A DNA stretch of 64,000 bases from Candidatus Cloacimonadales bacterium (GCA_963674825.1 OY771587.1:1600001-1664000), one strand, 5' to 3'; positions 5,473 to 23,462 are shown, counted from the stretch's first letter. Translations and numbers: made by a program. Notes: generated by a model not told the origin, from the letters alone.

Positions 5473-6204
5473 ATGGATAAACAACAGCCAATAGCACTCA
5501 TTACCGGCGCTGCCCGTGGTATCGGAGCAGCCATCGCCAAACAACTCAGCGCAGACGGTTATATTATCTGGGCAAACTACCGCAGCAACCACGAAGCAGC
5601 CAGCCTACTCAAGCAGGAAATCGAGGAACAAGGCGGACAGTGCGTGCTTGTTCCGTTCGATGTCGCCGACGAAGAGCAGGTCAATCAGGCGCTCTCTCCA
5701 CTTCTGGAGAACGCAACACCGGATGTCCTGGTCAATAACGCCGGCTTCAGCCGCGACAGCTTGATGGTTTGGATGTCGTCGGAAGACTGGCAGGCCGTCA
5801 CCGACGTTACCCTGCGCGGTTTCTTCCTGGTCACCAAGCAAGTCCTGCTGGGCATGATGAAGCAGCGCAAAGGTGTCATCGTCAACGTCGCCTCCACCGC
5901 GGGACAGAGCGGACTCGCCGGACAGGCAAACTATTCCGCCGCCAAAGCCGGGCTCATCGGCGCAACCAAGTCGCTTGCCAAAGAGGTTATCAAGCGTAAG
6001 GTGCGCGTCAACTGCGTCGCGCCGGGATTTGTCGAGACCGATATGACAAACGATCTCCCGGTTGACGAGATCAAGAAAACCATCCCCGCCGGAAGGTTCG
6101 GCAAAGTGGAAGAAATCGCCGGCGTGGTGAGCTTCCTATGCTCGGACGCAGCCGCCTATATCGTAGGCGAAACCATCTCCGTCAACGGCGGAATTTACAC
6201 CTGA
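5473..6204 (+). CDS. fabG: 3-oxoacyl-ACP reductase (ketoreductase of the lipid cluster)
   Basis: TGAARGIG, NNAG, YSAAK, VAPGFVETDM SDR motifs. Confidence 0.9.
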   Translation: MDKQQPIALITGAARGIGAAIAKQLSADGYIIWANYRSNHEAASLLKQEIEEQGGQCVLVPFDVADEEQVNQALSPLLENATPDVLVNNAGFSRDSLMVWMSSEDWQAVTDVTLRGFFLVTKQVLLGMMKQRKGVIVNVASTAGQSGLAGQANYSAAKAGLIGATKSLAKEVIKRKVRVNCVAPGFVETDMTNDLPVDEIKKTIPAGRFGKVEEIAGVVSFLCSDAAAYIVGETISVNGGIYT

Positions 6205-6250
6205 TCAACGATTTTCGCATCAGCGGAATCCACATAGAAAGAGGTTGAAC

Positions 6251-7465
6251 ATGTACGATGTCGCGATCACCGGTATCGGTGTCGTATCTACCCTGGGAAC
6301 GGGAGTCGAAAAGGTAGCCCGTTCGCTGGAGCAGGGTAAAACTGGAGTAGGAATTGATCCGGAGCGCAAGGAACTCGGCTTCCGCAGCACGCTGACCGGA
6401 ATCATCGATGATTTCGAGCCACCGCAGATGCCGCGTAAACAGCGCAAGACGCTCAGCGATTTCGGCCTGCAAGGCTACGCAGCGGCGCTTGAAGCAGTCG
6501 AGATGGCGGGATGGAGTCAGGAAGATATCCAGACCAGCAGAACCGGCCTGATCATCGGAAACGATTCCTCCGCAATCGCAAATATAACACCTTACGAAGT
6601 TGTTATGCGGGAGAAATCAACGTTCCCGATCGGCGCGACGGTAATCTTCCAGGCGCTGACCTCCACCGTGACGATGAATCTCAATACACTTTTTGGAAAT
6701 CGCGGCGCGTCCTGGACCATATCGGGAGCATGCGCCAGTGGTGGACACGCTGTTGGGCAAGCAGCAGACCTGATCGCGCTTGGCAGGCAGGATCGAGTCA
6801 TATGCGGTGGCGTGCAGGAGATAAGCTGGCAATCGGTTTGCAGCTTCGATGCAACCAACGCCTTTTCCCTCCGTATGGACGAACCCGAGAAGGCGTGTCG
6901 TCCATTCGACAAAGACCGCGACGGCCTGATTCCCAGCGGTGGTGCAGCAATTGTCGCACTCGAGCGGGGCGATATCGCTCGAAAACGTGGTGCAAATATT
7001 CTCGGATGGGTACGTGGCTACGGATTCTCATCCGATGGGCAGAACCTCTCGGTTCCTTCCGGCGACGGCCTGCGGGACTGCATTAAACTCTGTCTCGAAA
7101 ACGCGAAGCTCAATCCTGATCAGATCGACTATATCAATGCGCACGCCACATCGACACCAGTCGGTGACGCCATGGAAGCACGCGCAATCGGCGAAGTTTT
7201 CGCCAACAGCAATCCGTGGGTATCATCAACCAAATCGATGACCGGCCACGAGATGTGGATGTCTGGTGCGGCACAGGTCGTTTACACGCTGCTTATGGCT
7301 CAAAATGGCTTCATTGCGCCCAATCTGAACTACACCACTCCAGATCCCGAAATGCCCACACTCAGGATCGCAAAGGAAACCATTGCGCTAAAACCGAGAC
7401 TGGCACTGCTCAACTCTGCCGGCTTCGGCGGAACGAATTCCTGTCTGATCATTGAGAGCGAATGA
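6251..7465 (+). CDS. beta-ketoacyl-ACP synthase (FabB/FabF-like KS 1)
   Basis: Catalytic triad GACASG, NAHATST, KSMTGHE; NSAGFGGTN. Confidence 0.9.
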   Translation: MYDVAITGIGVVSTLGTGVEKVARSLEQGKTGVGIDPERKELGFRSTLTGIIDDFEPPQMPRKQRKTLSDFGLQGYAAALEAVEMAGWSQEDIQTSRTGLIIGNDSSAIANITPYEVVMREKSTFPIGATVIFQALTSTVTMNLNTLFGNRGASWTISGACASGGHAVGQAADLIALGRQDRVICGGVQEISWQSVCSFDATNAFSLRMDEPEKACRPFDKDRDGLIPSGGAAIVALERGDIARKRGANILGWVRGYGFSSDGQNLSVPSGDGLRDCIKLCLENAKLNPDQIDYINAHATSTPVGDAMEARAIGEVFANSNPWVSSTKSMTGHEMWMSGAAQVVYTLLMAQNGFIAPNLNYTTPDPEMPTLRIAKETIALKPRLALLNSAGFGGTNSCLIIESE

Positions 7466-8913
7466 GCAAATACGACAGTATCGTAATCGGCGCGGGTGCG
7501 AGCGGATGCGCCTCGGCGTTGCTTCTTGCCATGAACGGGCAGAAAGTCGCACTTGTGGAGTCCCACCGAACCCTGATGCCGCTGATCAAACGATTCAAGC
7601 GCCAAGGCTACTGGTGCGATCCCGGATTCCACTATACTGGCGGTTTGCATCACGATGGCAAGATGTCCGTTTACATGCGCTATATGGGGCTCGACAGCAT
7701 GATCCGGCCTGTCATGATGGATCAGGAATGCTTCGATATCATCCGCGTGAAGGATCGCGAATTTCGCATCCCGTGGGGTATGAAGCGATTACGAGACTAC
7801 CTTTGCTCAGAATTCCCAAAGTCAAGCGCTGCCATCAACACCTATCTCGACTATTTTCACGCGTTGAACGAAAACACCGCTTTCACAAACTACGATCTCC
7901 CCTATGGCACCTATCCTGATGAGATCATCGATTCGCGGAGCCTCTATCGATACCTGCGCGATCTTGGCGCTGAAAAGCAATTGATACAGCTCATCGGTGT
8001 CCACGGCAGCATCGTGTACGGTGCTGACTTGCTGGAAACTCCGGCGTTCATGAACGCTTATATCATGTGGTCGTTCTACAACGGCACCGGGACATTCATC
8101 AACGGCGGCGACGCGCTGGTTGATGCCTTTTCGAAGCGACTCAGCGAGGCCGGGGTAGATGTGTTTCTCGGTTCACCGGTGACGAAGGTCGATATCGATT
8201 CGCAACGTATATTCCGGGGTGTCGAGATCGCCGGAGAAACAATGCTTGAAGCCGATCATTGCGTCGCGAGTCTACATCCACAACGCCTGATGAACCTGAT
8301 CCCAGACCACGGCGTAAGGCCAGCATTCCGTAAAAGAGTGAACGGATTGCAAAACACCGCCTCATTTGCCACGATTTTTTATGGAACTACGATAATCCCC
8401 GAGCCGATCAAGCATGCGAACGAATACACATTTTCACCTGATCGCAAGGACGCTATGGACGGAACTTTCGCCATCATGAAAACCGATCCGGAGCAGAAAA
8501 ACGCGCTTACAGTAATACTTCCGATCAATTCAAATGAATTGGACGATTTATTCAATATTGACAGAAAAGAAGAACCTGAGAAATATCAATCCTTGAAAAA
8601 GGAGATCGGTAAACGGGCGGATCGTGCGCTTTTCCAACGGTTTCCGGAGCTGAAAGGCCATGCGGAAATACTGGATATTGCCACACCGGCAACCTACCAG
8701 CGCTACACTGGCACGCCTCGAGGAACCGCCTACGGTCTGAAGCAATCGAATCAGACCTTCTCGCTGACCACACGCACACCGGTACAGGGTTTGTTCCTTG
8801 CGGGACAAAGCTTGAGTCCGGGAGTACTTGGCGCGTTCGTGACAGGCTTCATGGCTACCGCATCGATCATAGATCCCGATCCGATCTGGAAGGAACTCAG
8901 AAAATGCAGATAA
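7462..8913 (+). CDS. phytoene desaturase-like FAD-dependent oxidoreductase
   Basis: GAGASG dinucleotide fold, DPGFHYTGG, ATPATYQRYTG...GTAYG, GLFLAGQS. Confidence 0.8.
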   Translation: MSKYDSIVIGAGASGCASALLLAMNGQKVALVESHRTLMPLIKRFKRQGYWCDPGFHYTGGLHHDGKMSVYMRYMGLDSMIRPVMMDQECFDIIRVKDREFRIPWGMKRLRDYLCSEFPKSSAAINTYLDYFHALNENTAFTNYDLPYGTYPDEIIDSRSLYRYLRDLGAEKQLIQLIGVHGSIVYGADLLETPAFMNAYIMWSFYNGTGTFINGGDALVDAFSKRLSEAGVDVFLGSPVTKVDIDSQRIFRGVEIAGETMLEADHCVASLHPQRLMNLIPDHGVRPAFRKRVNGLQNTASFATIFYGTTIIPEPIKHANEYTFSPDRKDAMDGTFAIMKTDPEQKNALTVILPINSNELDDLFNIDRKEEPEKYQSLKKEIGKRADRALFQRFPELKGHAEILDIATPATYQRYTGTPRGTAYGLKQSNQTFSLTTRTPVQGLFLAGQSLSPGVLGAFVTGFMATASIIDPDPIWKELRKCR

Positions 8914-10148
8914 ATCGAGTTGTAATAACCGGCATGGGGGCCGTATCTCCCTTTGGAGCAGGCGCAGATAAGATGTATGACAGTCTTTGCGCAGGCAAAA
9001 CCGGTGTTGTGAACCTGAAGAAGGAATGGCAAGAAATCGTATCCGACCTGGAATGCTGGGTCGGTGCACCGGTCATCGAAGAGCTCAATGAGAAAAAGAT
9101 CCCTCGTCGCTACCGTAAGCTGATGGGACGCACCGCGATCCTCTCGTACTTCGCAGCGCTGGAAGCGATCGAAAGCGCTGGAATCACCGATGAAATGCTT
9201 CGTTCGGGCGAAGTCGGCGTATGCTTCGGATCTTCGCTGGGCAGCATCCAGAGTACAGCGGAATTTTTCTCCGAAATCATCCGCACAAGCGAAAGCCATC
9301 AGCTCTCATCGGGGATGTTCTTTCAGGTGATGAGCCATACAGCGGCTGCAAACCTGGCGCATGTATTTGGAATTACCGGCAGGGTTCTGGCTGCAAACGC
9401 AGCCTGCGCATCTTCATTGCAATCGATTGGCGTAGCCTACGAGCAAGTTCGCTACGGGATGGCGGATATCATGATTTGCGGTGGTGCTGAAGAGCTTCAC
9501 GCCTACACCAGCACATCGTTTGACATCGTACAGGGAACCTCTACCCACTACAACGATAGCCCCTCCGATACACCTCGGCCATTCGACCGAGATCGTGACG
9601 GAACCGTTTGTGGAGAAGGCGCTGGTTGCCTGATCATTGAATCTGAGGAATCGGCGAAGAAGCGTGGCGCGACGATCCTGGCAGAGATAATAGGATTCCA
9701 AACATCTGCAAGCGGCGAACATATGTCCCATTCGAATGCGGAATCCATTGTATCCTGCATGCGTAAAACGCTCCAAAGCGCAGGAATCAATCCCGAAGAT
9801 GTAGATTATATCAACGCCCACGCGACCGCAACCGAACTTGGCGACCTTCACGAAGCTCAGGCGATCGAAGAGGTATTCAACGGGCATAAAATACCGGTCA
9901 GCAGCCTCAAGGGTTACATGGGTCACACACTTGGAGCCAGCGGAGCACTGGAGCTGATCGCATCGGTATTCATGATGCGAGATCAACAGATTCTCCCCAC
10001 ACGAAACCTGAGCAACCCGGACGATGCCGCCAAAAACTTGCGGCACGTGACCAGTATCGAGCCTGCGAAACTTGATATTATTCTAAAAAACAGCTTCGCC
10101 TTTGGGGGAATCAACACGGCACTATTGATAAGGAGTTATAAATCATGA
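8904..10148 (+). CDS. beta-ketoacyl-ACP synthase (FabF/ApeR-like KS 2)
   Basis: AACASS, NAHATAT, KGYMGHTLGA, NSFAFGGIN. Confidence 0.9.
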   Translation: MQINRVVITGMGAVSPFGAGADKMYDSLCAGKTGVVNLKKEWQEIVSDLECWVGAPVIEELNEKKIPRRYRKLMGRTAILSYFAALEAIESAGITDEMLRSGEVGVCFGSSLGSIQSTAEFFSEIIRTSESHQLSSGMFFQVMSHTAAANLAHVFGITGRVLAANAACASSLQSIGVAYEQVRYGMADIMICGGAEELHAYTSTSFDIVQGTSTHYNDSPSDTPRPFDRDRDGTVCGEGAGCLIIESEESAKKRGATILAEIIGFQTSASGEHMSHSNAESIVSCMRKTLQSAGINPEDVDYINAHATATELGDLHEAQAIEEVFNGHKIPVSSLKGYMGHTLGASGALELIASVFMMRDQQILPTRNLSNPDDAAKNLRHVTSIEPAKLDIILKNSFAFGGINTALLIRSYKS

Positions 10149-10399
10149 ACGATGAAATGATTATGGAAAAAATTTCACGTATTCTGGTCGATGAATTTGA
10201 AATTGAAGAAGATAAGATCACGACGGAAGCGACGCTTTACGATGAACTGGGCCTGGATAGCCTGGACGGTGTGGATCTGATCGTTATGCTTGAAAACGAA
10301 TTTGGCTTCAAGGTCGATCGCAAGCAGGATGAAAGCGTCATTCGCGCAATGAGGAACGTACAGCACATCGTCGATTTCATCAAGCAAAAAGCTGCCTGA
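10145..10399 (+). CDS. acyl carrier protein
   Basis: 84 aa acidic protein with LGLDSLD phosphopantetheine site. Confidence 0.95.
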   Translation: MNDEMIMEKISRILVDEFEIEEDKITTEATLYDELGLDSLDGVDLIVMLENEFGFKVDRKQDESVIRAMRNVQHIVDFIKQKAA

Positions 10400-10420: not shown

Positions 10421-11152
10421 ATGCCTCTTCTGCTGAATTTTTATTTTATTGTTGTACTCGCTCTCGTAAGCGCCGTGTTCGAGGTTTTATATCACCTGGC
10501 GGCGCCCATCATGATGCTTGTGAAAGGCTATCGGCGAGATGACATTTATCGCATCAAGAACGCCGTTTACGGAAAAATGATGGTACGGGCAAGCTGGCCC
10601 ATTCTGCGTGTCAAGATGAAAGGCGCACACCGGGTTCCGAAGAACCGTTCCTGCGTTTTTGTCTATAACCACCCCAGCATGATCGATGTTTTCTTCGCAG
10701 CGTTGGTCCCGCACAACAACCTGTTGGTGTTCGTGCGATCCTGGCCATTCAAGCTGAAGCTCTTCGGCTGGTCTATGAAGCTTGCGGACTACATCAACAG
10801 TGAAGCCACCACACACGATGAGCTTGTTGAGCGCGGCGTTAAACTGGCGGAGCGCAATGTTTCGTTCGTGGTATTTCCCGAAGGTCACCGTTCACGCGAT
10901 GGCAAGCTGCACCGATTCTATTCCGGCGCGTTCTATCTCTCCATCAATACCGGCTCACCGGTAATACCGGTTGTGATGTCCGGAGTCGAAAACTTTTTCA
11001 GCACGAAGTTCCCCTTCGTGCGACCGACGAATGTAACTATCGAGATGCTCGACCCTGTTTATCCCGAGAATTTTCAGGAGGGTCAACGTCACCTGGCCAT
11101 GCGTAAACACGTCGAAGGCATCTATCGAGAATATTTGGGAGAACCACTTTGA
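10421..11152 (+). CDS. lysophospholipid acyltransferase (PlsC/ApeD-like)
   Basis: NHPSMID (HxxxxD), FPEGHRS, N-terminal hydrophobic helix. Confidence 0.85.
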   Translation: MPLLLNFYFIVVLALVSAVFEVLYHLAAPIMMLVKGYRRDDIYRIKNAVYGKMMVRASWPILRVKMKGAHRVPKNRSCVFVYNHPSMIDVFFAALVPHNNLLVFVRSWPFKLKLFGWSMKLADYINSEATTHDELVERGVKLAERNVSFVVFPEGHRSRDGKLHRFYSGAFYLSINTGSPVIPVVMSGVENFFSTKFPFVRPTNVTIEMLDPVYPENFQEGQRHLAMRKHVEGIYREYLGEPL

Positions 11153-12465
11153 ACCTGATCGCCGATTTCCCCGCTGGCAAGTACCGCGACATTCAATATT
11201 TGAGCCGCGATCAGCAAGACGCCATTACGCTGGAACTGCTTCGAGAGCACATCGCATATGCGGCAAAGAACAGTCCTTTTTACCAGCGGCTTGGCATCGA
11301 CAGCAATAATATCAGGGATTTCAGCGATATGCAGCTGATTCCCACCACTGAAAAACGCCACCTGACCGAGCAGAATCTCGATTTTCTGGCTGTTCCACGT
11401 GAAACCGTGACCGATGTCTGCATGACATCCGCCACCGTCGGCTCGCAACCGACCATGATCCTGCAAACCCCTTCCGATCTCGCGCGCCTCGCGCACAACG
11501 AGGAGATCGCGTTCGGCATCTCCGGCCTCGGAAGTAATGACATCCTGGCTATCGGCGCAGCCATCGACCGCTGTTTCATGGCAGGCCTGGCATACTATCT
11601 GGGCGCACAGCGTATGGGCGCGACCGCTGTCCGCATCGGAGCTGGAAGCGCGGCGCAGCATTGGGAGCTGATCAAGACAACGGATGCAACAGCCATCGTA
11701 GGCGTACCATCCATGATGCTCAAGATCGCTCAGTACGCGCAGGAAGCAGGAGATGACCCAGCTTCGAGCACCGTCAGGAAGCTGCTCGCCATCGGCGAAC
11801 CGACGCGCGACGCCGGGCTGGAATTACTGCCTCTCGGCAAGCTGCTGGAAGAGACATGGCAAGCACCGCTCTATTCCACCTACGCTTCCACCGAAATGGC
11901 TACCTCATTCAACGAATGCGACGCCCGATGCGGAGGCCACCTTCGTCCCGAACTGGCCTACATGGAGATCCTCGACGATGATGGGAAACCAGTTCCACAA
12001 GGCGAGACAGGCGAAGTGACCCTTACACCGCTTGGTGTAAAAGGAATGCCGCTGATCAGGTTCCGCACCGGCGATATAGCCTACATGATCGACGAACCAT
12101 GCTCTTGCGGCAGAACTTCTCGGCGCATATCCCCGGTAGTGGGACGCAAGAACCAGATGCTGAAATACAAGGGAACGCTGATGTTCCCCAACGCCGTGAT
12201 GTCCGCTGTGGAAGGCCTGGATGGATTTCTGGAAGGCTATGTTACGGCGAAGTGCGATTCGCATGGAAACGACCTGGTGACGCTTTGCGCGGCGATTGAT
12301 CCCGCAAGGCTCTCGCTCGAAACCATGCGCCAGAGGCTACAGTCAAAGATCCGTGTGGTACCGCAGATCGAGCTGATGACCGAAGATGCTATTAGAGAAA
12401 AAGTATATCTGCCCGGAAAACGTAAACGGGTAATCTTTCACGATTACAGGAGTAACAATGAATGA
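11149..12465 (+). CDS. phenylacetate-CoA ligase (PaaK)-family adenylating enzyme, probable aryl starter loader
   Basis: MTSATVG P-loop, IGEP, YASTE, PLIRFRTGD, VGR. Confidence 0.85.
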   Translation: MNLIADFPAGKYRDIQYLSRDQQDAITLELLREHIAYAAKNSPFYQRLGIDSNNIRDFSDMQLIPTTEKRHLTEQNLDFLAVPRETVTDVCMTSATVGSQPTMILQTPSDLARLAHNEEIAFGISGLGSNDILAIGAAIDRCFMAGLAYYLGAQRMGATAVRIGAGSAAQHWELIKTTDATAIVGVPSMMLKIAQYAQEAGDDPASSTVRKLLAIGEPTRDAGLELLPLGKLLEETWQAPLYSTYASTEMATSFNECDARCGGHLRPELAYMEILDDDGKPVPQGETGEVTLTPLGVKGMPLIRFRTGDIAYMIDEPCSCGRTSRRISPVVGRKNQMLKYKGTLMFPNAVMSAVEGLDGFLEGYVTAKCDSHGNDLVTLCAAIDPARLSLETMRQRLQSKIRVVPQIELMTEDAIREKVYLPGKRKRVIFHDYRSNNE

Positions 12466-14041
12466 CACGATCGTATTAACTGGCTACGATTTATCTATAG
12501 ACGAGATCGTCGCGATCGGACGCGGCGAAAAGAAAGTGAGCATGGAACCGCGCGCCTTGCAGCGTTGCGAAGCCTCGAGGAAGTTCCTGGAAGAAGAGAT
12601 TTCCAAGCAACGCGTCATCTACGGCGTAAACACCTCGTTCGGCCCCATGTGCAACAAAATCATCGACCACAACCACATCGAAACCCTGCAAGCCAACCTT
12701 ATCCGCAGCCATGCGGCCGGACTGGGCGAACCGCTCAATCCGGATGTCGCACGGGCCGTCTTCGCAGTGCGTTTGAACACATTGGTCAAAGGCTACGCAG
12801 GTGTCCGCATCGAACTGCTGGAACTGCTGGAAGGCATGATCAACGCCGGCATCGCACCATGGATTCCCGAGTGTGGAAGCGTAGGAGCATCGGGCGATCT
12901 GGTCCATCTGGCGCACATGGCGCTTTCGATCATCGGTGAAGGAAACGTGTGGTTTGATGACAGGGTAATCCCAGCGGAGTTGGCGCTGAAACAGTGCGAT
13001 CTGGAACCGCTGAACCTCAGCTATAAGGAAGGCCTTGCGCTGATCAACGGAACCGCCGCCATGACCGCCATCGCCGCTTTCGCTATCCACGACGCCAGAA
13101 AATCGATCGATATCGCCTGCCTGAACGCGGCATTCGCAATCGAGATTTTCGGCGGGATCGACGACGCATTCGACCGGCATCTGCATGCGGTCAAGCCGCA
13201 TCCGGGGCAAGTCTGGATCGCGGATCGTATTCGCGGACTCTACAAGGGCTCGGAAAACATCACCCTGCGCGAAAACATGCACGAGATTATCCGCAGCAAG
13301 CAGAAGGGCGACGAGCAAGTATTCGAGACCGATATCAACGTGCAGGATGTCTATTCAATTCGCTGCACGCCGCAGATACTGGCACCGGTGCAGGAAGCGA
13401 TCGAATTCACATCCGAAACCGTGATGCGTGAGGCAAACTCGTCCAACGACAACCCGATTATTATCCCCGAGAAACGAAAGATCATCCACGGCGGTAACTT
13501 CCATGGACAGAGCATCAGCTTCGCCATGGATATGCTCGCAATTGCTGTCTCAACCATGTGCAACCTCTCCGAACGCCGGCTGAACAAGCTGCTCGATCGC
13601 AACCTCAACGAAGGTCTGCCAGAGCATCTCATTCCGGGTACGGTGGGCCTTACGATGGGGTTCATGGGTGCACAGTACCTCTCCACTTCCACAACGGCGG
13701 AGAACCGCCAGATGGCAGCACCGGTCAGCACCAATACAATCTCCTGTAATGCCTCCAACCAGGACGTCGTCAGCATGGGGACCGTCTCGGCACGCAGAAC
13801 CTACCGCATGCTCAAGAATGCCTCCTATGTCTTGACGATGGAAACGCTGGCAGATATGCAAGCGCTTTCGTTCCGCAACGCCGATAAGCTCGGCGGGAAA
13901 ACCGGCAGGATTTACGGTGAACTTCAGAAACACTTCCGGGTTTACGATAACACACGCATTTTCCATGAAGATCTGGCAGCCTTCAAGCACCTGATATTCA
14001 AAGAAATCGACTTGAGTGGCATGCTGGAAGCAAAAGAATGA
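12458..14041 (+). CDS. MIO aromatic amino acid ammonia-lyase, probably tyrosine ammonia-lyase type
   Basis: YGVNTSFGPM, GSVGASGDL (ASG = MIO), YSIRCTPQ, HGGNFHG, NQDVVSMG (PAL/TAL-type NQD rather than HAL QED). Confidence 0.85.
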   Translation: MNDTIVLTGYDLSIDEIVAIGRGEKKVSMEPRALQRCEASRKFLEEEISKQRVIYGVNTSFGPMCNKIIDHNHIETLQANLIRSHAAGLGEPLNPDVARAVFAVRLNTLVKGYAGVRIELLELLEGMINAGIAPWIPECGSVGASGDLVHLAHMALSIIGEGNVWFDDRVIPAELALKQCDLEPLNLSYKEGLALINGTAAMTAIAAFAIHDARKSIDIACLNAAFAIEIFGGIDDAFDRHLHAVKPHPGQVWIADRIRGLYKGSENITLRENMHEIIRSKQKGDEQVFETDINVQDVYSIRCTPQILAPVQEAIEFTSETVMREANSSNDNPIIIPEKRKIIHGGNFHGQSISFAMDMLAIAVSTMCNLSERRLNKLLDRNLNEGLPEHLIPGTVGLTMGFMGAQYLSTSTTAENRQMAAPVSTNTISCNASNQDVVSMGTVSARRTYRMLKNASYVLTMETLADMQALSFRNADKLGGKTGRIYGELQKHFRVYDNTRIFHEDLAAFKHLIFKEIDLSGMLEAKE

Positions 14042-14048
14042 GGAGACA

Positions 14049-15399: not shown

Positions 15400-17234
15400 A
15401 ATCTGTTTTTATCAGCGCAGCCAATATCGTGACCGGGCTTGGAACCGGCGTCGAAACCAATCTCGATAAGCTGCTCTTGGGTTCGATCGCGATTGAGACC
15501 ATCGAGCATTTCAACACCGACAGACTACTGTTTCACAAGGCCTCGACGGCGAAGCATATCCGCAAACGCAACCCTCGAAGTGTGATGATGGAGCTGACCA
15601 AAGAAGTAGTTTCCGGTTTACCAAAACTGCCTGAAAACACCTACCTGATCTGGGCCGGCGTAAAGAATAATATTGAGTATATCGAAGCCGGGAAAGACGA
15701 TTCGCTGCCCTACCTGCCCGAGCATTTCATCGAATTCGTGCAAAAGGAACTGGCAATCGACGGCGGAAGTCTTTGCTGTAACGCTGCCTGTGCCGCATCG
15801 ACGGTCGCGATCGCGCTTGCCGCACAGAAGGTTGCATCCGGTCAGAAGAAGAGCGTACTGGTTGTCGCAGCCGATATCGCCAGTCGATTCACCCACACCG
15901 GATTTTCAGCTCTCCGTGCGCTTTCCGGCACTGACTGCCGTCCGTTTGACGGCAACCGTGACGGGCTCTGCCTCGGCGACGGCGCTGCCGCGATCTGGAT
16001 TACCGACGGAGATGGTTTCTCCACGGAAGCAAAGCTCTCAGGTTGGGGTATCGCCAACGACGCCAATCATATCACCGGGCCGGCGCGTGACGGATGTGGA
16101 TTGATCATGTCCATCGAGCAGGCGATGAAAATCGCAGGTCTGAAATCGAATCAGATTGAAGCCTTCTGCGCTCACGGAACCGGTACCGTATATAACGACG
16201 CAATGGAACTGACCGCATTCGAAACCATCTTCGGCGAGAAGCGATTCCCGGTTTTCGGCGTCAAGGGCTCTATCGGCCACACGCTGGGAGCAGCCGGTGC
16301 GATCGAAGTCGCGCTGTGCAGCAAACTCCTCGATAAAAAGATCATCCCACCAACCAACGGCGTCACCGAACCGGAAGAACGCGCTGTGGGAAGAGTTTCC
16401 AGTCAATCGCAAGCTTTTGCCGGTAACAGCATCCTGACCACCAATTCCGGGTTTGGTGGCGTAAACGCCGCAGTTATTTTGGAGCCGGTTTTGGATCGCC
16501 AAGCTCCAGCTTGGCATCTCCCTGAAATGGATGCTCGTTCGGAGACCGAGCGCAACAAAAATCATGATCAGGTGAACCTGAAGATTCTCGGCGGAAGCTG
16601 GATCAACGCATCGGGATTCGCGCAGTTGAACCAAGCCACATCCTTCGAGTACCAACCGGGTGAACCCGTTCTACCGCCGGCACGAGGACTCTTCAATCCT
16701 CCGCTTACACGCTACGGCAGATTCGATCGTTATACCAAGACCGGTATCGCGGCCATGGCGCTTGCTTTGAAAGACGCCGGACTGGAAACGTACGAAGACA
16801 AGCGCAACATCGGCGTGGTTCTTTCTACTAAATGGGAGAGCTTCGAAACCGATCTGACATATTATGAAACGACGCTCGCGGACGGCGGCATCGCATCAAG
16901 TCCGAACCTCTTTTCCTACACACTTCCCAACGTGGTTATCGGCGAATGTGCCGCCTACTACAAGCTAATGGGCCCCACTTTCACTGTGGGAAGCTGCTTT
17001 TTGCCTGCGCTAGACGCGATGATAGCCGGGCTGACCGACACGATGGTCATCGGATGGCTGGACAGCGACCCAATGGGTGACCATAACGGCGCGCTGTTTG
17101 TTTTGGTGAAGCGTGCAAACGAACACGAGAAATACGATTATCAATACATTGACGGGACGCTGACCGATCCAAACGGCAAGCCAATCAACAGCTTGCAGGA
17201 TCTGGTTCGCAACCACATCAACCAAAAGGGCTAA
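15396..17234 (+). CDS. ketosynthase fused to a chain-length-factor-like domain
   Basis: N-terminal KS with AACAAS, AHGTGT, GHTLGAAG and SGFGGVN; C-terminal inactive KS-like domain with RFDRYTK and SPNLFSYTLPN. Confidence 0.8.
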   Translation: MKSVFISAANIVTGLGTGVETNLDKLLLGSIAIETIEHFNTDRLLFHKASTAKHIRKRNPRSVMMELTKEVVSGLPKLPENTYLIWAGVKNNIEYIEAGKDDSLPYLPEHFIEFVQKELAIDGGSLCCNAACAASTVAIALAAQKVASGQKKSVLVVAADIASRFTHTGFSALRALSGTDCRPFDGNRDGLCLGDGAAAIWITDGDGFSTEAKLSGWGIANDANHITGPARDGCGLIMSIEQAMKIAGLKSNQIEAFCAHGTGTVYNDAMELTAFETIFGEKRFPVFGVKGSIGHTLGAAGAIEVALCSKLLDKKIIPPTNGVTEPEERAVGRVSSQSQAFAGNSILTTNSGFGGVNAAVILEPVLDRQAPAWHLPEMDARSETERNKNHDQVNLKILGGSWINASGFAQLNQATSFEYQPGEPVLPPARGLFNPPLTRYGRFDRYTKTGIAAMALALKDAGLETYEDKRNIGVVLSTKWESFETDLTYYETTLADGGIASSPNLFSYTLPNVVIGECAAYYKLMGPTFTVGSCFLPALDAMIAGLTDTMVIGWLDSDPMGDHNGALFVLVKRANEHEKYDYQYIDGTLTDPNGKPINSLQDLVRNHINQKG

Positions 17235-17238
17235 TACT

Positions 17239-18501
17239 ATGAAATTCAAACTTATATATCCGAAATGGCGTAAACTCGAGATGCAGACACCATTCTTTCT
17301 TCCGCCGCACGGCCCGGTCGTAATGGCTGCCGAAGTGCCGGAAGATGTCGAAATCGAATTCACTGACGACAACGTGCAGGACTTGGTTCTGGATGACTCA
17401 CCCGATCTGGTGGGACTTTCTGTCATGCTCACAGCGCAGCTTCCCAGAGCGTTCGAGATCGCAAAACACTACCGCGACCGCGGTATCCCCGTCATGGCGG
17501 GTGGTATCTCGGCGAATCTCCATTCGGAAGAGCTCAGAAAGCATGTCGATTCCATCTTCCTGGGGGAAGTAGAAGGCAGACTTGGCAAGGTCTTCGACGA
17601 TCTCAAGAACGGGCAATTGAAACCAGTGTACGACTACCATCTCGATTTTCCGCCCATCGAGTCCATTGGAACCGCTCGGCGCGAGATCCTGGACCACAGC
17701 AAGTACGTCTATCGCGGCACCAAAATGCTCGATCTGATTCACGCCTCGCGCGGCTGCCGGTTCAATTGCTTCCCGTGCTGCACGCCGTATCTGGGTGGTC
17801 GGCAATTCCGCCCGAGACCGATTGAAAACGTCATCGAGGAGATGAAAGCGATCGACAATAACCGCCTATTCATCGTGGATAACTCACTGGCGCAGGACTC
17901 TAACTGGGAAAAAGAGCTCTTCAAAGCGATGATTCCCATCAAGAAGAAATTCGTAAGCCATCCCATCGAACGCAACGACGAGATCCTCGAGCTCGCATAT
18001 CAGGCTGGTGCATGGTACGTCTATCAGGCGGTGTTCGATACTTCCGATTTCATCCGCGAAACCATCCGCATGTACAAGGATCATGGCATCGGCATCGAGG
18101 GAACCATCATTCTCGGTACCGACGATCAGGATGTGGACACCATCAAGCGGCTCGTCGATTTCCTGCTCGAAGTGGAGATGGACACTGCTGAATTCACAAT
18201 ACTCACACCGTTCATGCACACTCCGATCCGTACGCAGCTCGAAAAAGAAGGCCGACTGCTCTCCAATGGATGGGAAGATTATACTTGCGATCGCGTCGTT
18301 TTCAAACCCAAGAAAATGACGACAACCCAGCTTCAGGATATGTATTATTACGCGTGGGAAACCTTCTATCAGGATGAATCGCAGGAATTGAAGATGGGCA
18401 AGCTCTTCCACAAGCTGGTGCAACGTGAAATTGCAGACGGCACCTATGCGCGTCCAAGCCTTTCCGGCAGTCGCAGACGTGGAGCAAACCAAACGACATG
18501 A
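17239..18501 (+). CDS. cobalamin-binding radical SAM protein 1
   Basis: N-terminal B12-binding Rossmann domain (PPHG, DLVGLS, MAGG, GEVE); RGCRFNCFPC CxxxCxxC. Confidence 0.85.
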   Translation: MKFKLIYPKWRKLEMQTPFFLPPHGPVVMAAEVPEDVEIEFTDDNVQDLVLDDSPDLVGLSVMLTAQLPRAFEIAKHYRDRGIPVMAGGISANLHSEELRKHVDSIFLGEVEGRLGKVFDDLKNGQLKPVYDYHLDFPPIESIGTARREILDHSKYVYRGTKMLDLIHASRGCRFNCFPCCTPYLGGRQFRPRPIENVIEEMKAIDNNRLFIVDNSLAQDSNWEKELFKAMIPIKKKFVSHPIERNDEILELAYQAGAWYVYQAVFDTSDFIRETIRMYKDHGIGIEGTIILGTDDQDVDTIKRLVDFLLEVEMDTAEFTILTPFMHTPIRTQLEKEGRLLSNGWEDYTCDRVVFKPKKMTTTQLQDMYYYAWETFYQDESQELKMGKLFHKLVQREIADGTYARPSLSGSRRRGANQTT

Positions 18502-19844
18502 TACTGCTGATTTCCTGCAACACAACCACCGAACCCTATCCGGTCTATCCGCTGGGTATGGCGATGATCGCACATGCCGCTGAGGATGCCGGATTTGACG
18601 TAATCCAGCGCGATATCCTGGTCGCAGAAGACTGGCAAGCGGAAATCCGCGAGCTGATCGAACAGAACGATCTGCTCCTGATCGGGCTTTCCATACGCAA
18701 TGTTGACGACGTCAACTACTGCAAGGGCGATGTATATTTCGACCACTATCGCCAGATCGTGCAATTCATCCGGCAGTACACCGACAAACCCATCGTACTC
18801 GGTGGTTCGGGCTACTCGATCTTCCCAAATGAGATGCTCGAAATGAGCGGTGCCGACTACGGTATCGTGGGTGAAGGCGAAAAGGTATTCGTCGAGCTGG
18901 CAAAGGCGATCAGCAGCGGCAATCCGCCATCTGAGACCATCCTGCGCGGTTCGAGCTACATCCAGCCAGACGAACTGATCCCCACCCGTCGAGATCCGAA
19001 GCTTGCCGAGTTTTATCTCATGCGTGGTGGTATGCTGAATGTGCAGAGCAAGCGCGGGTGTCCACATCGCTGCATCTATTGCTCCTATCCCGTGCTGGAA
19101 GGCGTTCAATATCGGTTTCGCTCGGCAAAGGACGTCGTGGACGAGATCGAGCAACTGAAAACCGATTACAATGCCGACTATCTTTCTTTCACCGACTCGG
19201 TATTCAATGACGCGCGCGGTAACTATCTCTCCATCGCGGAGGAACTTGTGCGTCGCCAGAATAAGACGCCGTGGATGGCTTTTTTCCGTCCTGCCGATTT
19301 CACGCCAGACGAAGTCGATCTGCTGAAACGATCTGGTTTGCATGCTGTGGAATGGGGAACAGACGCTTCCTCCGACGCAACACTGGACGGACTGAAGAAG
19401 GACTTTACCTGGGCTCAGGTACAGCATTCCAACCGGTTGTTCGCGGAATCCGGCATTCAGAACGCACATTTCGTGATGTTCGCCGGACCGAACGAGACAC
19501 CGGAGACAGTCGAAGAGGGAATCCGCAATATCGAAGCGCTAACCGATTGCGTGGTCTTCGCCGGTATCGGGTTGCGCGTGTTCCCGGATACGCCTATCTG
19601 GAAGACACTGACAGAGCAAGGCATAATCTCAGCGCAACAGAACATCCTCGATCCCTACTGGTACTTTTCGCCGCACATCGATCGCGAATGGCTCCACCAA
19701 AGACTGCTGGAAGCGTTCAAAGACCGAAAGGATCGCATCTATCCCGACGGCGAACAGCTCGATATGATCAAGGCATTCCACAACATGGGCTATCGCGGCC
19801 CCATCTGGAACTTGATCCTCTCGCACAACAGAACCAGGCGGTAA
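18498..19844 (+). CDS. lipid-biosynthesis B12-binding radical SAM protein 2 (resembles the ladderane-cluster-associated family)
   Basis: PYPVYPLG, GLSIRNVDD, LGGSGYS, GEGE, KRGCPHRCIYC. Confidence 0.8.
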   Translation: MILLISCNTTTEPYPVYPLGMAMIAHAAEDAGFDVIQRDILVAEDWQAEIRELIEQNDLLLIGLSIRNVDDVNYCKGDVYFDHYRQIVQFIRQYTDKPIVLGGSGYSIFPNEMLEMSGADYGIVGEGEKVFVELAKAISSGNPPSETILRGSSYIQPDELIPTRRDPKLAEFYLMRGGMLNVQSKRGCPHRCIYCSYPVLEGVQYRFRSAKDVVDEIEQLKTDYNADYLSFTDSVFNDARGNYLSIAEELVRRQNKTPWMAFFRPADFTPDEVDLLKRSGLHAVEWGTDASSDATLDGLKKDFTWAQVQHSNRLFAESGIQNAHFVMFAGPNETPETVEEGIRNIEALTDCVVFAGIGLRVFPDTPIWKTLTEQGIISAQQNILDPYWYFSPHIDREWLHQRLLEAFKDRKDRIYPDGEQLDMIKAFHNMGYRGPIWNLILSHNRTRR

Positions 19845-19845
19845 C

Positions 19846-21291
19846 ATGAACGAGCGCGCATTATACTTAATTCACCCGCTGGGCGAAAACTGGATGCCTG
19901 GCGAAATCGATATGTCACGGGTGGCGAACATCATGCCACCGCTGGGCCTGTGCAGCATTTCCGCATGGATGGAGCAGCACGGCTGGCAAACCGAAATCTA
20001 TGATTGCTACGCCTTCCCGGGCGACGATAAACGACTTTTCCAGCAACTCGAACGCGATAAACCCATGTGGATCGGCTTCAGCACCACCACATCCAGTTTC
20101 CCGGACGCGATCCGTCTGGCGAACCACTGTCGCGAGATCCTGCCTGAAGCGAAGATCGTCTTCGGTGGTGTGCATGTTTCCGCACTACGAGAACAACTGA
20201 TGAACGAATTCTACGTCATCGATTACTGCGTGGTGGGCGAAGGCGAACAGACGCTGCTCGAACTGGTCGAATGCAACGACGAGGATCTTTCGCACATTCA
20301 AGGACTCATCTGGCGCGACGGCCACGAGGTGATCTTCAATGGTCATCGCGAAAAGCTGCTCGACCTCGATACCCTTCCGATCCCGTCATACAACAAGCTT
20401 CATGGCTTCCCCGAGGCTTACAAGCTACCGATTTTCAACTATCCCAAGGCCCCCGGAACGACCATCATCACCAGTCGCGGGTGCCCCTTCCGATGCTCCT
20501 ATTGCGATCGCTCGGTGTTCCAGAGCTCGTATCGCTACAACTCCGCAGACTACATCCTCAAGATGATGCAATACTTGCACGACACCTACGGGATGCGGCA
20601 CGTGAACATCTACGACGATACTTTCACGCTCCAACGCAAGCGGATCGAGGAATTTTGCCACAAGAAGATCGCCTCCGGACTCAAGATGACCTTCAATTGC
20701 GCCGCACGCGCGGAGCAGGTCGATCCCGAACTGCTCAAGCTGTTGAAGAAAGCCGGGTGCTGGATGATCAGCCTCGGCATCGAGACTGGCGATCCAGACC
20801 TACTCAGAAAGCATCGCTACTACGGTGGGAAAATACCCGAGGACGCTCTGCAGATGAATCGCGACGCCGTAAAAATGATCCGCAAGGCCGGTATCCGCGC
20901 CAAGGGTCTCTTCATGCTGGGACTTCCCGGCGAGACGGATGAGAGCATCGAACGCAGCATCCGCTACGTGCTGAGCCTGCCGCTGGATGACTTCAATCTG
21001 GCCAAGTTCACTCCATTCCCGGGATCACCCGCCTACCAGACGATCCACGAATTTGGCGAGTTCGACGAAGACTGGTCGCTCATGAACGCGCTCAATTTCG
21101 TTTTCGTGGCGCATGGCTTCACCAAAGAACGCCTGGAAGCGCGCCACCGGGAGTTTTATCGCCGCTACTATCAGCGCCATAAAGTGATGTGGAACTACGT
21201 CACCATGCTGTGGAAATCACCCGATAGCTGGCGAAGATTCCTGAAAGACCTCTCCGTCTTCCTCAGCTTCCGCAAGCAGTACGAGAAGTAG
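19846..21291 (+). CDS. cobalamin-binding radical SAM protein 3 (class B methyltransferase-like)
   Basis: MPPLGL, FGGVH, GEGE, SRGCPFRCSYC, DDTFT, LGIETG, GLPGET. Confidence 0.85.
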   Translation: MNERALYLIHPLGENWMPGEIDMSRVANIMPPLGLCSISAWMEQHGWQTEIYDCYAFPGDDKRLFQQLERDKPMWIGFSTTTSSFPDAIRLANHCREILPEAKIVFGGVHVSALREQLMNEFYVIDYCVVGEGEQTLLELVECNDEDLSHIQGLIWRDGHEVIFNGHREKLLDLDTLPIPSYNKLHGFPEAYKLPIFNYPKAPGTTIITSRGCPFRCSYCDRSVFQSSYRYNSADYILKMMQYLHDTYGMRHVNIYDDTFTLQRKRIEEFCHKKIASGLKMTFNCAARAEQVDPELLKLLKKAGCWMISLGIETGDPDLLRKHRYYGGKIPEDALQMNRDAVKMIRKAGIRAKGLFMLGLPGETDESIERSIRYVLSLPLDDFNLAKFTPFPGSPAYQTIHEFGEFDEDWSLMNALNFVFVAHGFTKERLEARHREFYRRYYQRHKVMWNYVTMLWKSPDSWRRFLKDLSVFLSFRKQYEK

Positions 21292-21295
21292 TAAA

Positions 21296-22570
21296 ATGAG
21301 TGCATCTGACATCCGAATCCTGATCGTGATCCCGGTTTACAACAACGCCGCTACGATCGCGGACGTGGCCCGACGCGCCATGCAAACCGGCTATCCGGTA
21401 CTGGTCGTCGATGATGGCTGTACGGATGGGGGGATAGAGAAGTTACGAGTTACAAGTAACGAGTTACAGAGTGATAACCCCCCTTTATCCCCCCTTGTCA
21501 GGGGGGTGAGAGAGGATTCTCCGTGCCCTCGCCCGTTTACGGAAGAGGGATGGGGTGAGGGTCTCATTATCACTGGATTCGAGCAGAATCGCGGTAAAGG
21601 CGCTGCCATCATGGAAGGCAATCGTTGGGCGATGGAGCATGGTTTCACGCACATCCTGACCATCGACGCCGACGGACAGCACCATCCCGAAGAGATCCCG
21701 CAATTCGTCGAAGCAGCTACTCGTTCTCCCCTATCTATCGTGATCGGAACCCGGGATTTCAACAGCGATGACGTCCCCGGATCGAGCAAATTCGGGCGTA
21801 AATTCTCCAACTTCTGGATCCGCGTCTGCACCGGGCAATCTGTCTCCGATAGCCAGAGTGGCTACCGTGTCTATCCCTGCGAAGCGCTTGAGCTATTGAA
21901 AATTAAAGGCCGACGATACAACTTCGAGGTGGAAGTTATCGTGCGCGCCATCTGGGCGGGACTGGAGATCAGCGAAGTACCGATCAAGGTCGAATACGCA
22001 GACCGCGTCACCCATTTCCATCCTTTCAAGGACAACGCCCGAATCTCTTGGACATACACCCGCCTGGTACTGCGAAACTTCCTGCCGTTACCGCACAAGC
22101 TGCTCTTCGGCAAGAAGCGCGAGAACCAGTTCAAGCTTTACCTGACCAATCCCTGGAAGACGCTCAAGATGCTCTTCACCGAACGCCTGGCTCCATCCGA
22201 ACTGGCGCTGGCAGTGGGTACCGGCGTCTTTCTGGCGACGTTTCCGCTGATCGGTTTCCACGGCGTAGCCATCGTATTCGTCGCCACACGTATCAAGGTA
22301 AACCGGCTTGTAGCACTCAGTATGAACCATTTTTGCGGCCCACCATTCGTTCCGGCACTCTCCATACTGATCGGATACTATGTGCGCAACGGACGCTTCC
22401 TAACCGAATTTACCTGGGAGACGCTTGGCCATCAGATCTTACAGCGATTAGGTGATTACATTGTCGGCTCGGCGGTTCTAGCGCCATTTCTGGCCATAGC
22501 ATCCGGTTTGAGCATCATGGGCGCGACATGGCTCTACCAGAAGATCACGCGACGAGGCAGCAATGTCTGA
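21296..22570 (+). CDS. glycosyltransferase family 2 with C-terminal DUF2062-like membrane domain
   Basis: IPVYN, VDDG, NRGKG, IDADGQH, DSQSGYRVYP; hydrophobic C-terminus; carries an in-frame palindromic insertion. Confidence 0.85.
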   Translation: MSASDIRILIVIPVYNNAATIADVARRAMQTGYPVLVVDDGCTDGGIEKLRVTSNELQSDNPPLSPLVRGVREDSPCPRPFTEEGWGEGLIITGFEQNRGKGAAIMEGNRWAMEHGFTHILTIDADGQHHPEEIPQFVEAATRSPLSIVIGTRDFNSDDVPGSSKFGRKFSNFWIRVCTGQSVSDSQSGYRVYPCEALELLKIKGRRYNFEVEVIVRAIWAGLEISEVPIKVEYADRVTHFHPFKDNARISWTYTRLVLRNFLPLPHKLLFGKKRENQFKLYLTNPWKTLKMLFTERLAPSELALAVGTGVFLATFPLIGFHGVAIVFVATRIKVNRLVALSMNHFCGPPFVPALSILIGYYVRNGRFLTEFTWETLGHQILQRLGDYIVGSAVLAPFLAIASGLSIMGATWLYQKITRRGSNV

Positions 22571-23462
22571 ACGAAAGAAATCACCAAATTACGGCGGAAA
22601 ACTGGGCTACGGATTCTTCCATATTCTTATACGGCTGCTGGGACCTTATCCGGCATACTTTTTCGCAGCATTTATAATACCGTATTACCTTGTAAAAGTG
22701 TGGCTTACTCAGTCATCTCCTCGATTTTACCTTGAGCACAGGTTCCCAAAAAAGTCAAAACTCGCGCGGTTTTTTCTGGGTAGTAAACACATCTACGAGT
22801 TCTCAAAAATACTGATCGATCAGGCCTGCATGGGCATCCTCGGTCCGGGAAAATTCAAGATCGAATTTACCCACTGGAACGCCCTCTACGAGCTTTCGAA
22901 GGAAGAAAAAGGCATGGTGCTTCTGACAAGTCATTGCGGAACCTGGCTCGCCGCCATGGCATCCATGGATCACCTGGAGAAGCCGGTCAATTTTCTCCTG
23001 CGCTTGCAAGAGCACGACCGCGGCAAATATTTCTTTGATCTCGCGCGGGAAAAGGGGATCAAGATCATTTCACCCGACGGTATGTTCGGTGGATTGGTGG
23101 AATCGATCAACATGCTTCAGAAAGGTGAATGCGTGTCCATCATGGGTGACCGTGCCTGGGGAGCCCGTACAAAAGACACGAAGTTTCTGGGCGAGGACGC
23201 CGCATTTCCCATCACACCCTACTATCTTTCGGTGACCGGCGAAGCAAGGCTGGTGATGTTTCTGACCGTGCGTACAGGGCCGCTCTCGTTCCGTATCGAC
23301 CACTACGTACTCACAGACGAGATTGACCAGAATCTGCAAAAGGACGCCAAGCTCGACGCCCTCATGAGGCGATACGTTGATCATCTGGAAGAATACGTAA
23401 CCAGTTATCCGTTCATGTGGCTCAATTTCTTCGATTTCTGGAGCGAGGATAAGACGTCTTAA
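22563..23462 (+). CDS. LpxL/LpxM-family lipid acyltransferase
   Basis: GMVLLTSHCGTW, VSIMGDR, FLG, YPFMWLNFFDFW. Confidence 0.8.
   Translation: MSERKKSPNYGGKLGYGFFHILIRLLGPYPAYFFAAFIIPYYLVKVWLTQSSPRFYLEHRFPKKSKLARFFLGSKHIYEFSKILIDQACMGILGPGKFKIEFTHWNALYELSKEEKGMVLLTSHCGTWLAAMASMDHLEKPVNFLLRLQEHDRGKYFFDLAREKGIKIISPDGMFGGLVESINMLQKGECVSIMGDRAWGARTKDTKFLGEDAAFPITPYYLSVTGEARLVMFLTVRTGPLSFRIDHYVLTDEIDQNLQKDAKLDALMRRYVDHLEEYVTSYPFMWLNFFDFWSEDKTS

Follow-up and report, generated by a model that had tools for sequence, protein, structure and literature searches.

The gene cluster treated here lies at positions 5473..23462 of a 64-kb stretch of DNA from Candidatus Cloacimonadales bacterium (GCA_963674825.1, OY771587.1:1600001-1664000), the whole of which is referred to as the window. 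Its closest described counterparts are the aryl polyene (ape), flexirubin, arcuflavin and 'ladderane-like' clusters of other bacteria. The aryl polyene lipid of Xenorhabdus carries the aryl polyene on N-acetylgalactosamine, together with a second conjugated acyl chain at the sn-2 position, and the two chains are proposed to be assembled on two ACPs (acyl carrier proteins), namely ApeE and ApeF, with ApeJ and ApeD as the transferring enzymes (bioRxiv 10.1101/2020.12.19.423268). In the flexirubin system, FlxA, a proven tyrosine ammonia-lyase (TAL), and FlxY have been shown to produce 4-coumaroyl-coenzyme A (CoA) (PMC3992019). The gene table of the Azoarcus cluster places darA, encoding the aromatase, beside darB, encoding the cyclase, with a BtrH-like gene close by (PMC3949708).

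The 'ladderane-like' clusters are islands of type II fatty acid synthesis (FASII) genes. Similar clusters have been described in Desulfotalea, Geobacter and Pelobacter, and Desulfotalea was found to contain C31:8/9 hydrocarbons and no ladderanes (Rattray 2009, PMC2649909). The Pelobacter genome paper contains nothing on the cluster. In anammox bacteria, the conserved and highly expressed cluster I is the ladderane candidate, still without direct evidence (bioRxiv 10.64898/2026.05.19.726425). Non-anammox 'ladderane' clusters are reported to be expressed in the Cariaco Basin, with their function left unexplained (PMC9902471), and the lipids proposed to arise by radical S-adenosylmethionine (SAM) modification of fatty-acyl or ketide chains are, according to a 2026 review (PMC13459092), only the ladderanes and jawsamycin, the Jaw5 product. 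The first-pass annotation of the window knew of no characterised product for this gene set, and the literature searched, which lies mostly outside the subscription journals, yielded none either for the set or for any member of the TIGR04072 islands.

The cluster comprises sixteen co-oriented open reading frames (ORFs), including three adjacent genes for radical SAM enzymes with B12-binding domains, here called RS1, RS2 and RS3. These sixteen genes are likely the largest of three gene blocks of one system, and it is highly probable that the assembly line they encode is of the aryl-polyene/flexirubin class. More specifically, we lean towards the reading that the three loci form an anaerobic assembly line of this type for an outer-membrane lipid, which is tailored by the B12 radical SAM enzymes, most likely through C-methylation.

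Correspondence with aryl polyene clusters

Eighteen Ape proteins of Escherichia coli CFT073 were compared with the host genome by BLAST and tblastn, and reciprocal best matches were recorded. Such matches pair the second ketosynthase (KS2) of the cluster with ApeR, the ketoreductase (KR) with ApeQ, the ACP with ApeF, the PlsC-type acyltransferase with ApeD and the thioesterase (TE) with ApeK; outside the window, at a second locus, they pair an ACP with ApeE and an MMPL protein with ApeM. ApeJ is also among the reciprocal best matches, with its two halves matched by the GT2 and LpxL proteins as separate genes. The top genome match of ApeO is the locus-2 ketosynthase (KS), and the dehydratase (DH) and LolA proteins match ApeI/ApeP and ApeL weakly. 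The DUF3261 protein corresponds to ApeN (PMC8253772).

Taken across the main cluster (locus 1) and locus 2, the system holds two ACPs (ApeE, ApeF), two KS types (ApeO, ApeR), a KR, weakly matched dehydratases, and ApeD and a split ApeJ as anchoring enzymes, and the MMPL/LolA/DUF3261 export set is complete at locus 2. The two-chain structure of the Xenorhabdus lipid explains why the host system contains two ACPs and two acyltransferases. Two KS-like proteins lack the catalytic triad, namely the chain length factor (CLF) half fused to KS3 and a locus-2 KS, and show no BLAST match to the chain length factor ApeC. ApeB, the aryl methyltransferase, has no tblastn match in the host genome. With best-match counterparts of ApeD, E, F, I/P, J, K, L, M, O, Q and R present, the aryl-polyene/flexirubin logic ascribed to the cluster at the outset is borne out.

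Two further loci

Locus 2 was found by tblastn as an extra KS pair 140 kb from the main cluster. Its ACP scores above the PRK09184 cut-off, and the locus is kept in 3/3 congeners; DUF3261 is found in 0/4 family genomes of other genera. In relatives, loci 1 and 2 are contiguous, with the locus-2 genes following straight after LpxL in L113/G193 and in G225, or interleaved with the main block (G320, G179, G235 and G282). Locus 2 of the host also contains two divergent GT4 genes, which are retained in one of three congeners.

Locus 3 contains a fourth B12 radical SAM enzyme (RS4), HpnR-like and below the model cut-off, followed by a DarB-family KS and then by an ORF whose sequence reads as a class I-type methyltransferase. 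The KS scores 540 bits against the StlD/DarB subfamily model (cut-off 450) and 455 against the narrower DarB model (cut-off 550), and it is present in 3/3 congeners, in 0/2 genomes of other genera and in three of the five genomes tested that carry the radical SAM trio. RS4 lies immediately upstream of DarB in all six DarB loci returned, and also in G381; in G381 and G282 the RS4-DarB pair adjoins the main cluster, at a place held in G193 and G225 by an unrelated 314-aa gene. The Azoarcus order of darA, darB and BtrH-like gene is matched in relative G225. Given the darA-darB order of Azoarcus and the pairing of RS4 with DarB, RS4 occupies the darA position, and by this analogy it may function in place of DarA. 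No DarA was seen beside DarB at the DarB loci compared, among the neighbouring genes and with no DarA query searched. The sixteen genes of the first-pass annotation are real, and its boundary was incomplete, since the system takes in two more loci beyond the window.

Starter cassette and family distribution

The lyase of the cluster, an enzyme of the 4-methylideneimidazole-5-one (MIO) type, combines a motif 1 resembling that of histidine ammonia-lyases (HAL) with a TAL-like motif 2. The same combination is described for FlxA in a paper that also states that lyase specificity is not predictable from sequence (PMC3992019). The nearest PDB sequences are the tyrosine aminomutase (TAM) SgTAM and AdmH, and the TAM and FlxA models score 459 (cut-off 501) and 469 (cut-off 700), respectively. 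These matches, and the occurrence of the lyase without a ligase at 2 of 16 loci, would suit an aminomutase that supplies beta-tyrosine or another amino acid unit to start or decorate a released, unanchored type II polyketide. We regard this as very unlikely, since the presence of PlsC, GT2, LpxL, LolA, DUF3261 and MMPL speaks for a membrane lipid and the adjoining ligase is nearest to the proven 4-coumarate ligase family.

The wider family was surveyed by way of TIGR04072, which was found above cut-off in 54/251 genomes drawn from the phylum to which an uncultured Geobacter record belongs and in 16/351 genomes of a Planctomycetota-type sample. Eighty genomes were chosen for comparison: the 54 over cut-off and one near it from the Geobacter-phylum set, 11 negatives, 7 from the host's own family and 7 planctomycetes. 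Many are drafts and kin, so that the counts are descriptive and no test is attached to them. In the 15 window-clade genomes, defined by the top RS2 scores (>=565 bits), RS1 is present in 15 and so is RS3, which in some cases lies at another locus, whereas 5 have the ligase, 2 the lyase and 1 a SPASM radical SAM enzyme. The suggestion that RS3 tracks the lyase was rejected on these counts (15/15 versus 2/15). RS1 lies within 3 kb of RS2 at 43/53 loci. The radical trio is the core of the family, and the ligase and lyase are optional, which argues against a tyrosine-derived ring as the sole substrate of the radical SAM enzymes.

Twenty distinct PlsC loci were found, of which 16 have the ACP-PlsC order and four rearranged ones were dropped. 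The slot after PlsC in these 16 holds ligase and lyase at 3, ligase and SPASM enzyme at 5, ligase alone at 2 and lyase alone at 2, and is empty at 4. Across the 80 genomes, lyase orthologues occur in 6 (one 38% match was dropped) and the SPASM enzyme in 12, never together. The SPASM enzyme is AhbD/NirJ2-like, below cut-offs, and follows the ligase where the lyase is absent (L223:4203-5246 (-); L269:11249-12355; L115, L121, L141, L322); it is also seen in anammox cluster II, at 52% identity. It may make the starter acid via radical chemistry.

These distributions bear on whether the product is aromatic at all. The family product could be an acyl glycolipid without an aromatic unit, multiply methyl-branched or tailored radically in some other way, or else a dialkylresorcinol lipid, with the lyase/ligase cassette as a side option, as the core trio, the close linkage of RS1 and RS2 and three complete clusters with nothing after PlsC (G179, G235, G282) would suggest. 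However, ligase and lyase are retained in 4/4 genomes of the host genus, at 73-90% identity and with ORFs overlapping their neighbours, and in clusters arranged otherwise (L140, L148, G546) RS2 directly adjoins either the lyase or the ligase-SPASM pair; other hosts might draw an aroyl-CoA from other pathways. We hold the non-aromatic product to be possible but rather unlikely. The aryl priming proposed by the first-pass annotation is likely for the host genus and is no rule for the family, given the empty slots.

Other features of the relatives concern cluster composition. The cluster is frequently closed off or broken up by a gene for a PagL-like outer-membrane protein (L134, L141, L214, L317, L319, L320), which has no match in the host genome. 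Homologues of RS1 and RS2 also occur in other cluster types, with AMP-ligase and FabH-like genes (L107, L114) or with two unannotated genes of 330-350 aa, KS pairs and a thioesterase (L140, L217, L313, L314). One RS1 homologue, at 66% identity, carries the name Desulfuromonas carbonis.

Radical SAM enzymes

RS1, RS2 and RS3 are only 20-25% identical to one another and so represent three families rather than tandem duplicates; of the 'three tandem' enzymes first described, the adjacency and the B12-binding domains stand. RS2 is the best defined. Its comparison with TIGR04072, which the first-pass annotation had put forward as a check, gave 553 bits against a cut-off of 360, in a FASII-type gene context. 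Its next NCBIfam matches, both far below cut-off, are TsrM and BzaD, the latter an enzyme that methylates an aromatic carbon. The best PDB match by profile is TsrM (E 5.6e-51), and the predicted model of RS2 (pLDDT 90.6) has a fold nearest to TsrM, with template modelling (TM) scores of 0.86-0.88 against <=0.67 for others.

TsrM, a tryptophan C2 methyltransferase (PDB 6WTE/6WTF), mediates the polar methylation of an sp2 carbon; its Arg69 lies beneath the cobalamin, and its Glu273 is a ligand of the unique iron (PMC9204698). RS2 shares with it the fold and the axial Gly-x-Ser/Thr-x-Arg motif, in which Arg67 corresponds to Arg69 in 147/148 sequences covering the position, but the two proteins are only 26% identical, and Glu273 and Glu236 are not conserved. 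The TIGR04072 score, the TsrM fold and the retained axial Arg, with Glu273 not retained, make C-methylation the likeliest reaction, and on this reading of sequence and model we think RS2 fairly probably a methylase. The first-pass annotation had the product either radically methylated or cyclised; methylation is the better supported for RS2.

In a quick tree, the RS2 clade (support 99) groups with the RS2 of flexirubin-order metagenome clusters, apart from both anammox clades. Those metagenome clusters (L164-L175, L182, L184) have the order lyase, KR, KS, ACP, LpxL, RS2, DH, TE, KS and so on, and in most of them RS2 is the sole B12 radical SAM enzyme seen. A first scan of the genome collection with the single RS2 sequence returned mostly distant radical SAM enzymes, and supplied the BzaD/TsrM-like outgroups. 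RS2 had no match in plasmids at E <= 1e-40.

RS1 scores 22.5 against the Radical_SAM Pfam model (cut-off 29.5), and its CxxxCxxC motif is invariant in 45/45 aligned homologues. Its clade lacks about 20 residues after barrel strand 4, a region that provides the SAM-binding Lys in OxsB/TsrM (PMC9204698). The nearest fold is that of AprD4 (TM 0.78). The top models of RS3 are BchE and HpnJ, both below cut-off.

Relation to ladderane clusters

The cluster is a member of the TIGR04072, or 'ladderane-like', family of FASII islands, but the ladderane half of the original description is weakened. Anammox-type genomes were chosen by phylum sampling and the hydrazine synthase subunit HZS_alpha; 44 were preselected and 18 had HZS_alpha, of which 15 with ORFs of 809-831 aa were kept and 3 with the match in far longer proteins were dropped. 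In one of them, G546, a TIGR04072 gene lies in a cluster ordered like what appears to be kuste3352-3335 (PMC4790861 Table 2), and orthologues of this gene (61-100%) occur in 4/15 anammox-type genomes. The anammox cluster shared with the host is the patchy kuste3335-3352 type and not the conserved cluster I, and the link is further weakened by the absence of ladderanes from Desulfotalea, which has a similar cluster (PMC2649909). A CrtI-like gene was found in 5/5 anammox-type genomes tested, with a second copy in 2 only. The anammox-type genomes also contain a second TIGR04072-like gene, which scores below cut-off and has a FabH/type III polyketide synthase-like gene after it (L271:9329-11828 and equivalents), apparently like kuste2803/2804; it occurs in 15/15, although these genomes were selected through that match.

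Cluster I, whose context was checked in three anammox-type genomes, offers a different connection. Its radical SAM enzyme has RS1 as its best match in the host genome, at 28% identity and 150 bits against 133 for the next. RS1 and RS3 could on this basis, one or both, cyclise or crosslink the polyene to a ring lipid in a non-anammox relative of the ladderane pathway; the fold of RS1 is nearest to AprD4, a non-methylase, the top models of RS3 are as given above, and a CrtI-like gene and KS/CLF pairs are common to both systems. The two enzymes form separate clades in quick trees, where a joint clade is not rejected by the approximately unbiased test (p-AU 0.198), but the anammox enzyme lacks the strand-4 deletion of the RS1 clade. 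The cluster-I FabZ, both FabFs (amxFabF2, amxFabFmut) and the desaturase are each better matched elsewhere in the host genome than in the cluster, HZS_alpha has no match in that genome, and the RS2-bearing anammox cluster and Desulfotalea, as above, also speak against ring formation, which we judge quite unlikely. The host cluster is probably not a ladderane pathway; a distant mechanistic link to ladderanes through RS1 is possible. In the family of genome G151, only generic RS1-like matches were seen (4/41 genomes). A link to overly-branched glycerol dialkyl glycerol tetraethers (PMC11868695) was considered and found no support.

Layout, host and conservation

All sixteen ORFs are on the + strand, and 9 of the 15 junctions overlap, with a widest gap of 40 nt when the longest-ORF starts are used; the co-oriented, mostly overlapping arrangement and every gene label first given for the 16 ORFs agree with the Pfam and NCBIfam searches. 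The features of all three loci are collected in Table 1. The flavin adenine dinucleotide (FAD) oxidoreductase had no match in a PDB sequence search, and promoter and terminator counts around the cluster were no more than chance level.

Table 1. Genes of the main cluster (window coordinates) and of the two further loci (host genome coordinates)
Feature	Position	Strand	Basis and remarks
GT4 glycosyltransferase; membership uncertain	4083..5303	+	PF00534; just upstream of cluster; position kept in 2/2 congeners; none seen in distant clusters
KR, ApeQ/FlxB-like	5473..6204	+	FlxB model 307.8 vs cut-off 340; top genome match of ApeQ, 42%
KS1, FabB-like	6245..7465	+	NCBIfam; Cys-His-His complete
CrtI/CrtD/retinol-saturase-like FAD oxidoreductase	7462..8913	+	PF01593; TIGR02733 under cut-off; Atlas neighbours
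KS2, ApeR-like	8904..10148	+	Reciprocal best match ApeR, 42% over 411 aa; triad complete
ACP, ApeF-like	10145..10399	+	Above PRK05350 cut-off; ApeF reciprocal best match
PlsC-type acyltransferase, ApeD-like	10421..11152	+	PF01553; ApeD reciprocal best match
FlxY/PaaK-type CoA ligase; optional starter cassette	11149..12465	+	FlxY model 440.6 vs 520
MIO lyase/aminomutase, likely TAL; optional starter cassette	12458..14041	+	PF00221; nearest PDB sequence SgTAM; FlxA-like motif pattern
Double hotdog dehydratase (ApeP-like + ApeI-like halves)	14016..14912	+	Pfam; weak Ape matches
TE, ApeK-like	14926..15399	+	Pfam; ApeK match
KS3 fused to triad-less CLF half	15396..17234	+	N-half Cys-His-His kept, C-half without triad; often two genes in relatives
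RS1, B12-domain radical SAM, own clade	17239..18501	+	Nearest fold AprD4; 28% to anammox cluster-I enzyme
RS2, TIGR04072, TsrM-like fold, predicted C-methyltransferase	18498..19844	+	NCBIfam, profile, fold, residue comparison
RS3, BchE/HpnJ-like B12 radical SAM	19846..21291	+	NCBIfam, below cut-off
GT2-DUF2062	21296..22570	+	Pfam; corresponds to ApeJ N-half
LpxL-type acyltransferase	22563..23462	+	Pfam; corresponds to ApeJ C-half
Locus 2: ACP, active KS, triad-less KS (CLF-like), LolA, DUF3261, MMPL	C1:1757771-1763931		
Locus 3: RS4 (fourth B12 radical SAM), DarB-family ketosynthase, class I-type methyltransferase ORF	C1:3716515-3719765		

The gene order is identical in the two congeners compared, at 57-94% identity. 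RS1, RS3, the lyase and the ligase are found in 4/4 genomes of the genus and in 0/3 family genomes of other genera, and TIGR04072 occurs in 3/151 genomes sampled from the host phylum, all three from the host genus. The GC content of the cluster is 53.5% against a genome mean of 49.6%, a level equalled by only one of 216 segments of 18 kb. The genus-restricted occurrence and raised GC suggest that the cluster was acquired by an ancestor of the genus. The host was taken from the outset to be an anaerobe, and its gene content agrees, with no COX1 match in the genome and four FeFe-hydrogenase matches; there is also a cobalamin riboswitch.

Elsewhere in the window, the cluster end and an M23 peptidase gene are separated by a lysine-rich ORF of 39 codons that has a strong ribosome-binding site (23537-23656 (-)); after it comes a terminator-like hairpin on the minus strand (23485-23512). 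A YegS/diacylglycerol-kinase-family lipid kinase (3065-3961 (-)) is divergent from the GT4 gene, and two overlapping ORFs of 448 and 418 aa (27911-30510 (+)) occupy a low-GC stretch without Pfam or NCBIfam match.

Proposed pathway and its standing

The genes, catalytic triads, synteny and best-match correspondence to Ape and Dar proteins were observed directly, and the following steps are inferred from them. The MIO enzyme would deaminate tyrosine to 4-coumarate, which the FlxY-like ligase would convert to its CoA ester. The locus-2 ApeO-like KS/CLF, together with KR and DH, could then extend the coumaroyl starter to an aryl polyene while it is carried by the ApeE-like ACP. A second special acyl chain, which PlsC would place on a lysophospholipid, may be built by KS2 and the ApeF-like ACP acting together with KS1, KS3-CLF and the FAD enzyme. 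GT2 would add a sugar and the LpxL-type enzyme the aryl-polyenoyl chain. DarB may condense two acyl chains and so give a dialkyl-cyclohexanedione/resorcinol, which might serve as the anchor instead, and export would be by MMPL, LolA and DUF3261. RS2 is envisaged to methylate, with methylcobalamin as the donor, an electron-rich sp2 carbon of a phenol, resorcinol or polyene, in place of the missing ApeB, and RS1 and RS3 may modify the acyl chains.

Several observations weigh against this reading. ApeA, ApeC, ApeG and ApeH have no BLAST match in the host genome, the FlxA, FlxY, FlxB and narrower DarB models all score below cut-off, and DarB was not found in 2/5 trio genomes tested. In RS2, the Fe-blocking Glu273 of TsrM is replaced by Val235 (Val/Ile/Thr in the family; Glu in 3/151, all TsrM-like outgroups) and Glu236 is not conserved, so the polar mechanism of TsrM cannot simply be assumed for it. 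In the version found in anammox cluster II, RS2 is accompanied by two ordinary SAM methyltransferases, and a class I methyltransferase ORF follows DarB in the host; RS2 therefore need not substitute for ApeB. The radical trio persists at the four loci with an empty starter slot, and with the two that have a lyase and no ligase this means that the substrate of RS2 cannot always be a tyrosine-derived ring. Finally, the FAD enzyme could saturate the chain, in which case there would be no pigment.

A bolder version of the scheme is an oxygen-independent flexirubin/aryl-polyene lipid pathway in which RS4 replaces DarA, the SPASM radical SAM enzyme replaces the ammonia-lyase as maker of the starter in relatives, and RS1 closes polyene rings. 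We consider this combination unlikely; were it true, the 'ladderane-like' clusters of culturable anaerobes would provide a working model of how ladderane rings form, and might be its evolutionary source. On the preferred reading of a C-methylated aryl-polyene/flexirubin-type lipid, the 'ladderane-like' clusters are recast as systems of this type whose starter cassettes can be exchanged and which include a radical SAM-DarB module, and RS2 is given a testable reaction. Since TIGR04072 is found in about a fifth of the genomes sampled from the Geobacter-record phylum, the product is probably an envelope lipid that is common in anoxic habitats and might be of use as a biomarker.

Comparison with known systems

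In common with anammox cluster I (kuste3603-3608; bioRxiv 10.64898/2026.05.19.726425), the host cluster has a KS/CLF pair, a CrtI-like gene and a B12 radical SAM enzyme of the broad subfamily of RS1. However, the fetched cluster-I locus has no anchor or export genes, and the host is not an anammox bacterium. The TIGR04072 islands of Desulfotalea, Geobacter, Pelobacter and Kuenenia (kuste3335-3352; PMC2649909, PMC4790861) share with it the TIGR04072 member, a PaaK-like ligase, a CrtI-like gene, KS/CLF pairs, GT2 and MMPL. The host RS2 and the anammox TIGR04072 enzyme nevertheless fall in different clades, at 34% identity, and where the host has RS1, RS3, PlsC/LpxL and a lyase, the kuste3335-3352-type cluster has a SPASM radical SAM enzyme and two SAM methyltransferases.

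With the flexirubin (Chitinophaga flx/dar; PMC3992019) and arcuflavin (Azoarcus arc/dar; PMC3949708) clusters, the host shares a TAL-like lyase, a 4-coumarate-ligase-like starter enzyme, several KS, LolA, a glycosyltransferase, an exporter and a DarB-family cyclase, the last at a separate locus. The host differs from the flexirubin cluster in its sub-cut-off Flx-specific models, from the arcuflavin cluster in having a B12 radical SAM enzyme where Azoarcus has darA, and from both in being anaerobic and in having three more radical SAM enzymes.

The ape clusters of E. coli CFT073 and Xenorhabdus doucetiae (PMC8253772, bioRxiv 10.1101/2020.12.19.423268) share with the host two ACPs, ApeR- and ApeO-like KS, a KR, two DH domains, TE, PlsC, GT2 plus acyltransferase, and MMPL/LolA/DUF3261. 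In contrast to them, the host system has no match to ApeB, ApeH, ApeA or ApeG, its genes are split over three loci, and it has in addition two more active KS, the FAD oxidoreductase, four B12-domain radical SAM enzymes, the lyase/ligase starter and DarB. The cluster is a real and conserved radical SAM variant of the aryl-polyene/flexirubin kind, one copy of a widespread family that has already been flagged genomically and catalogued as 'ladderane-like'.

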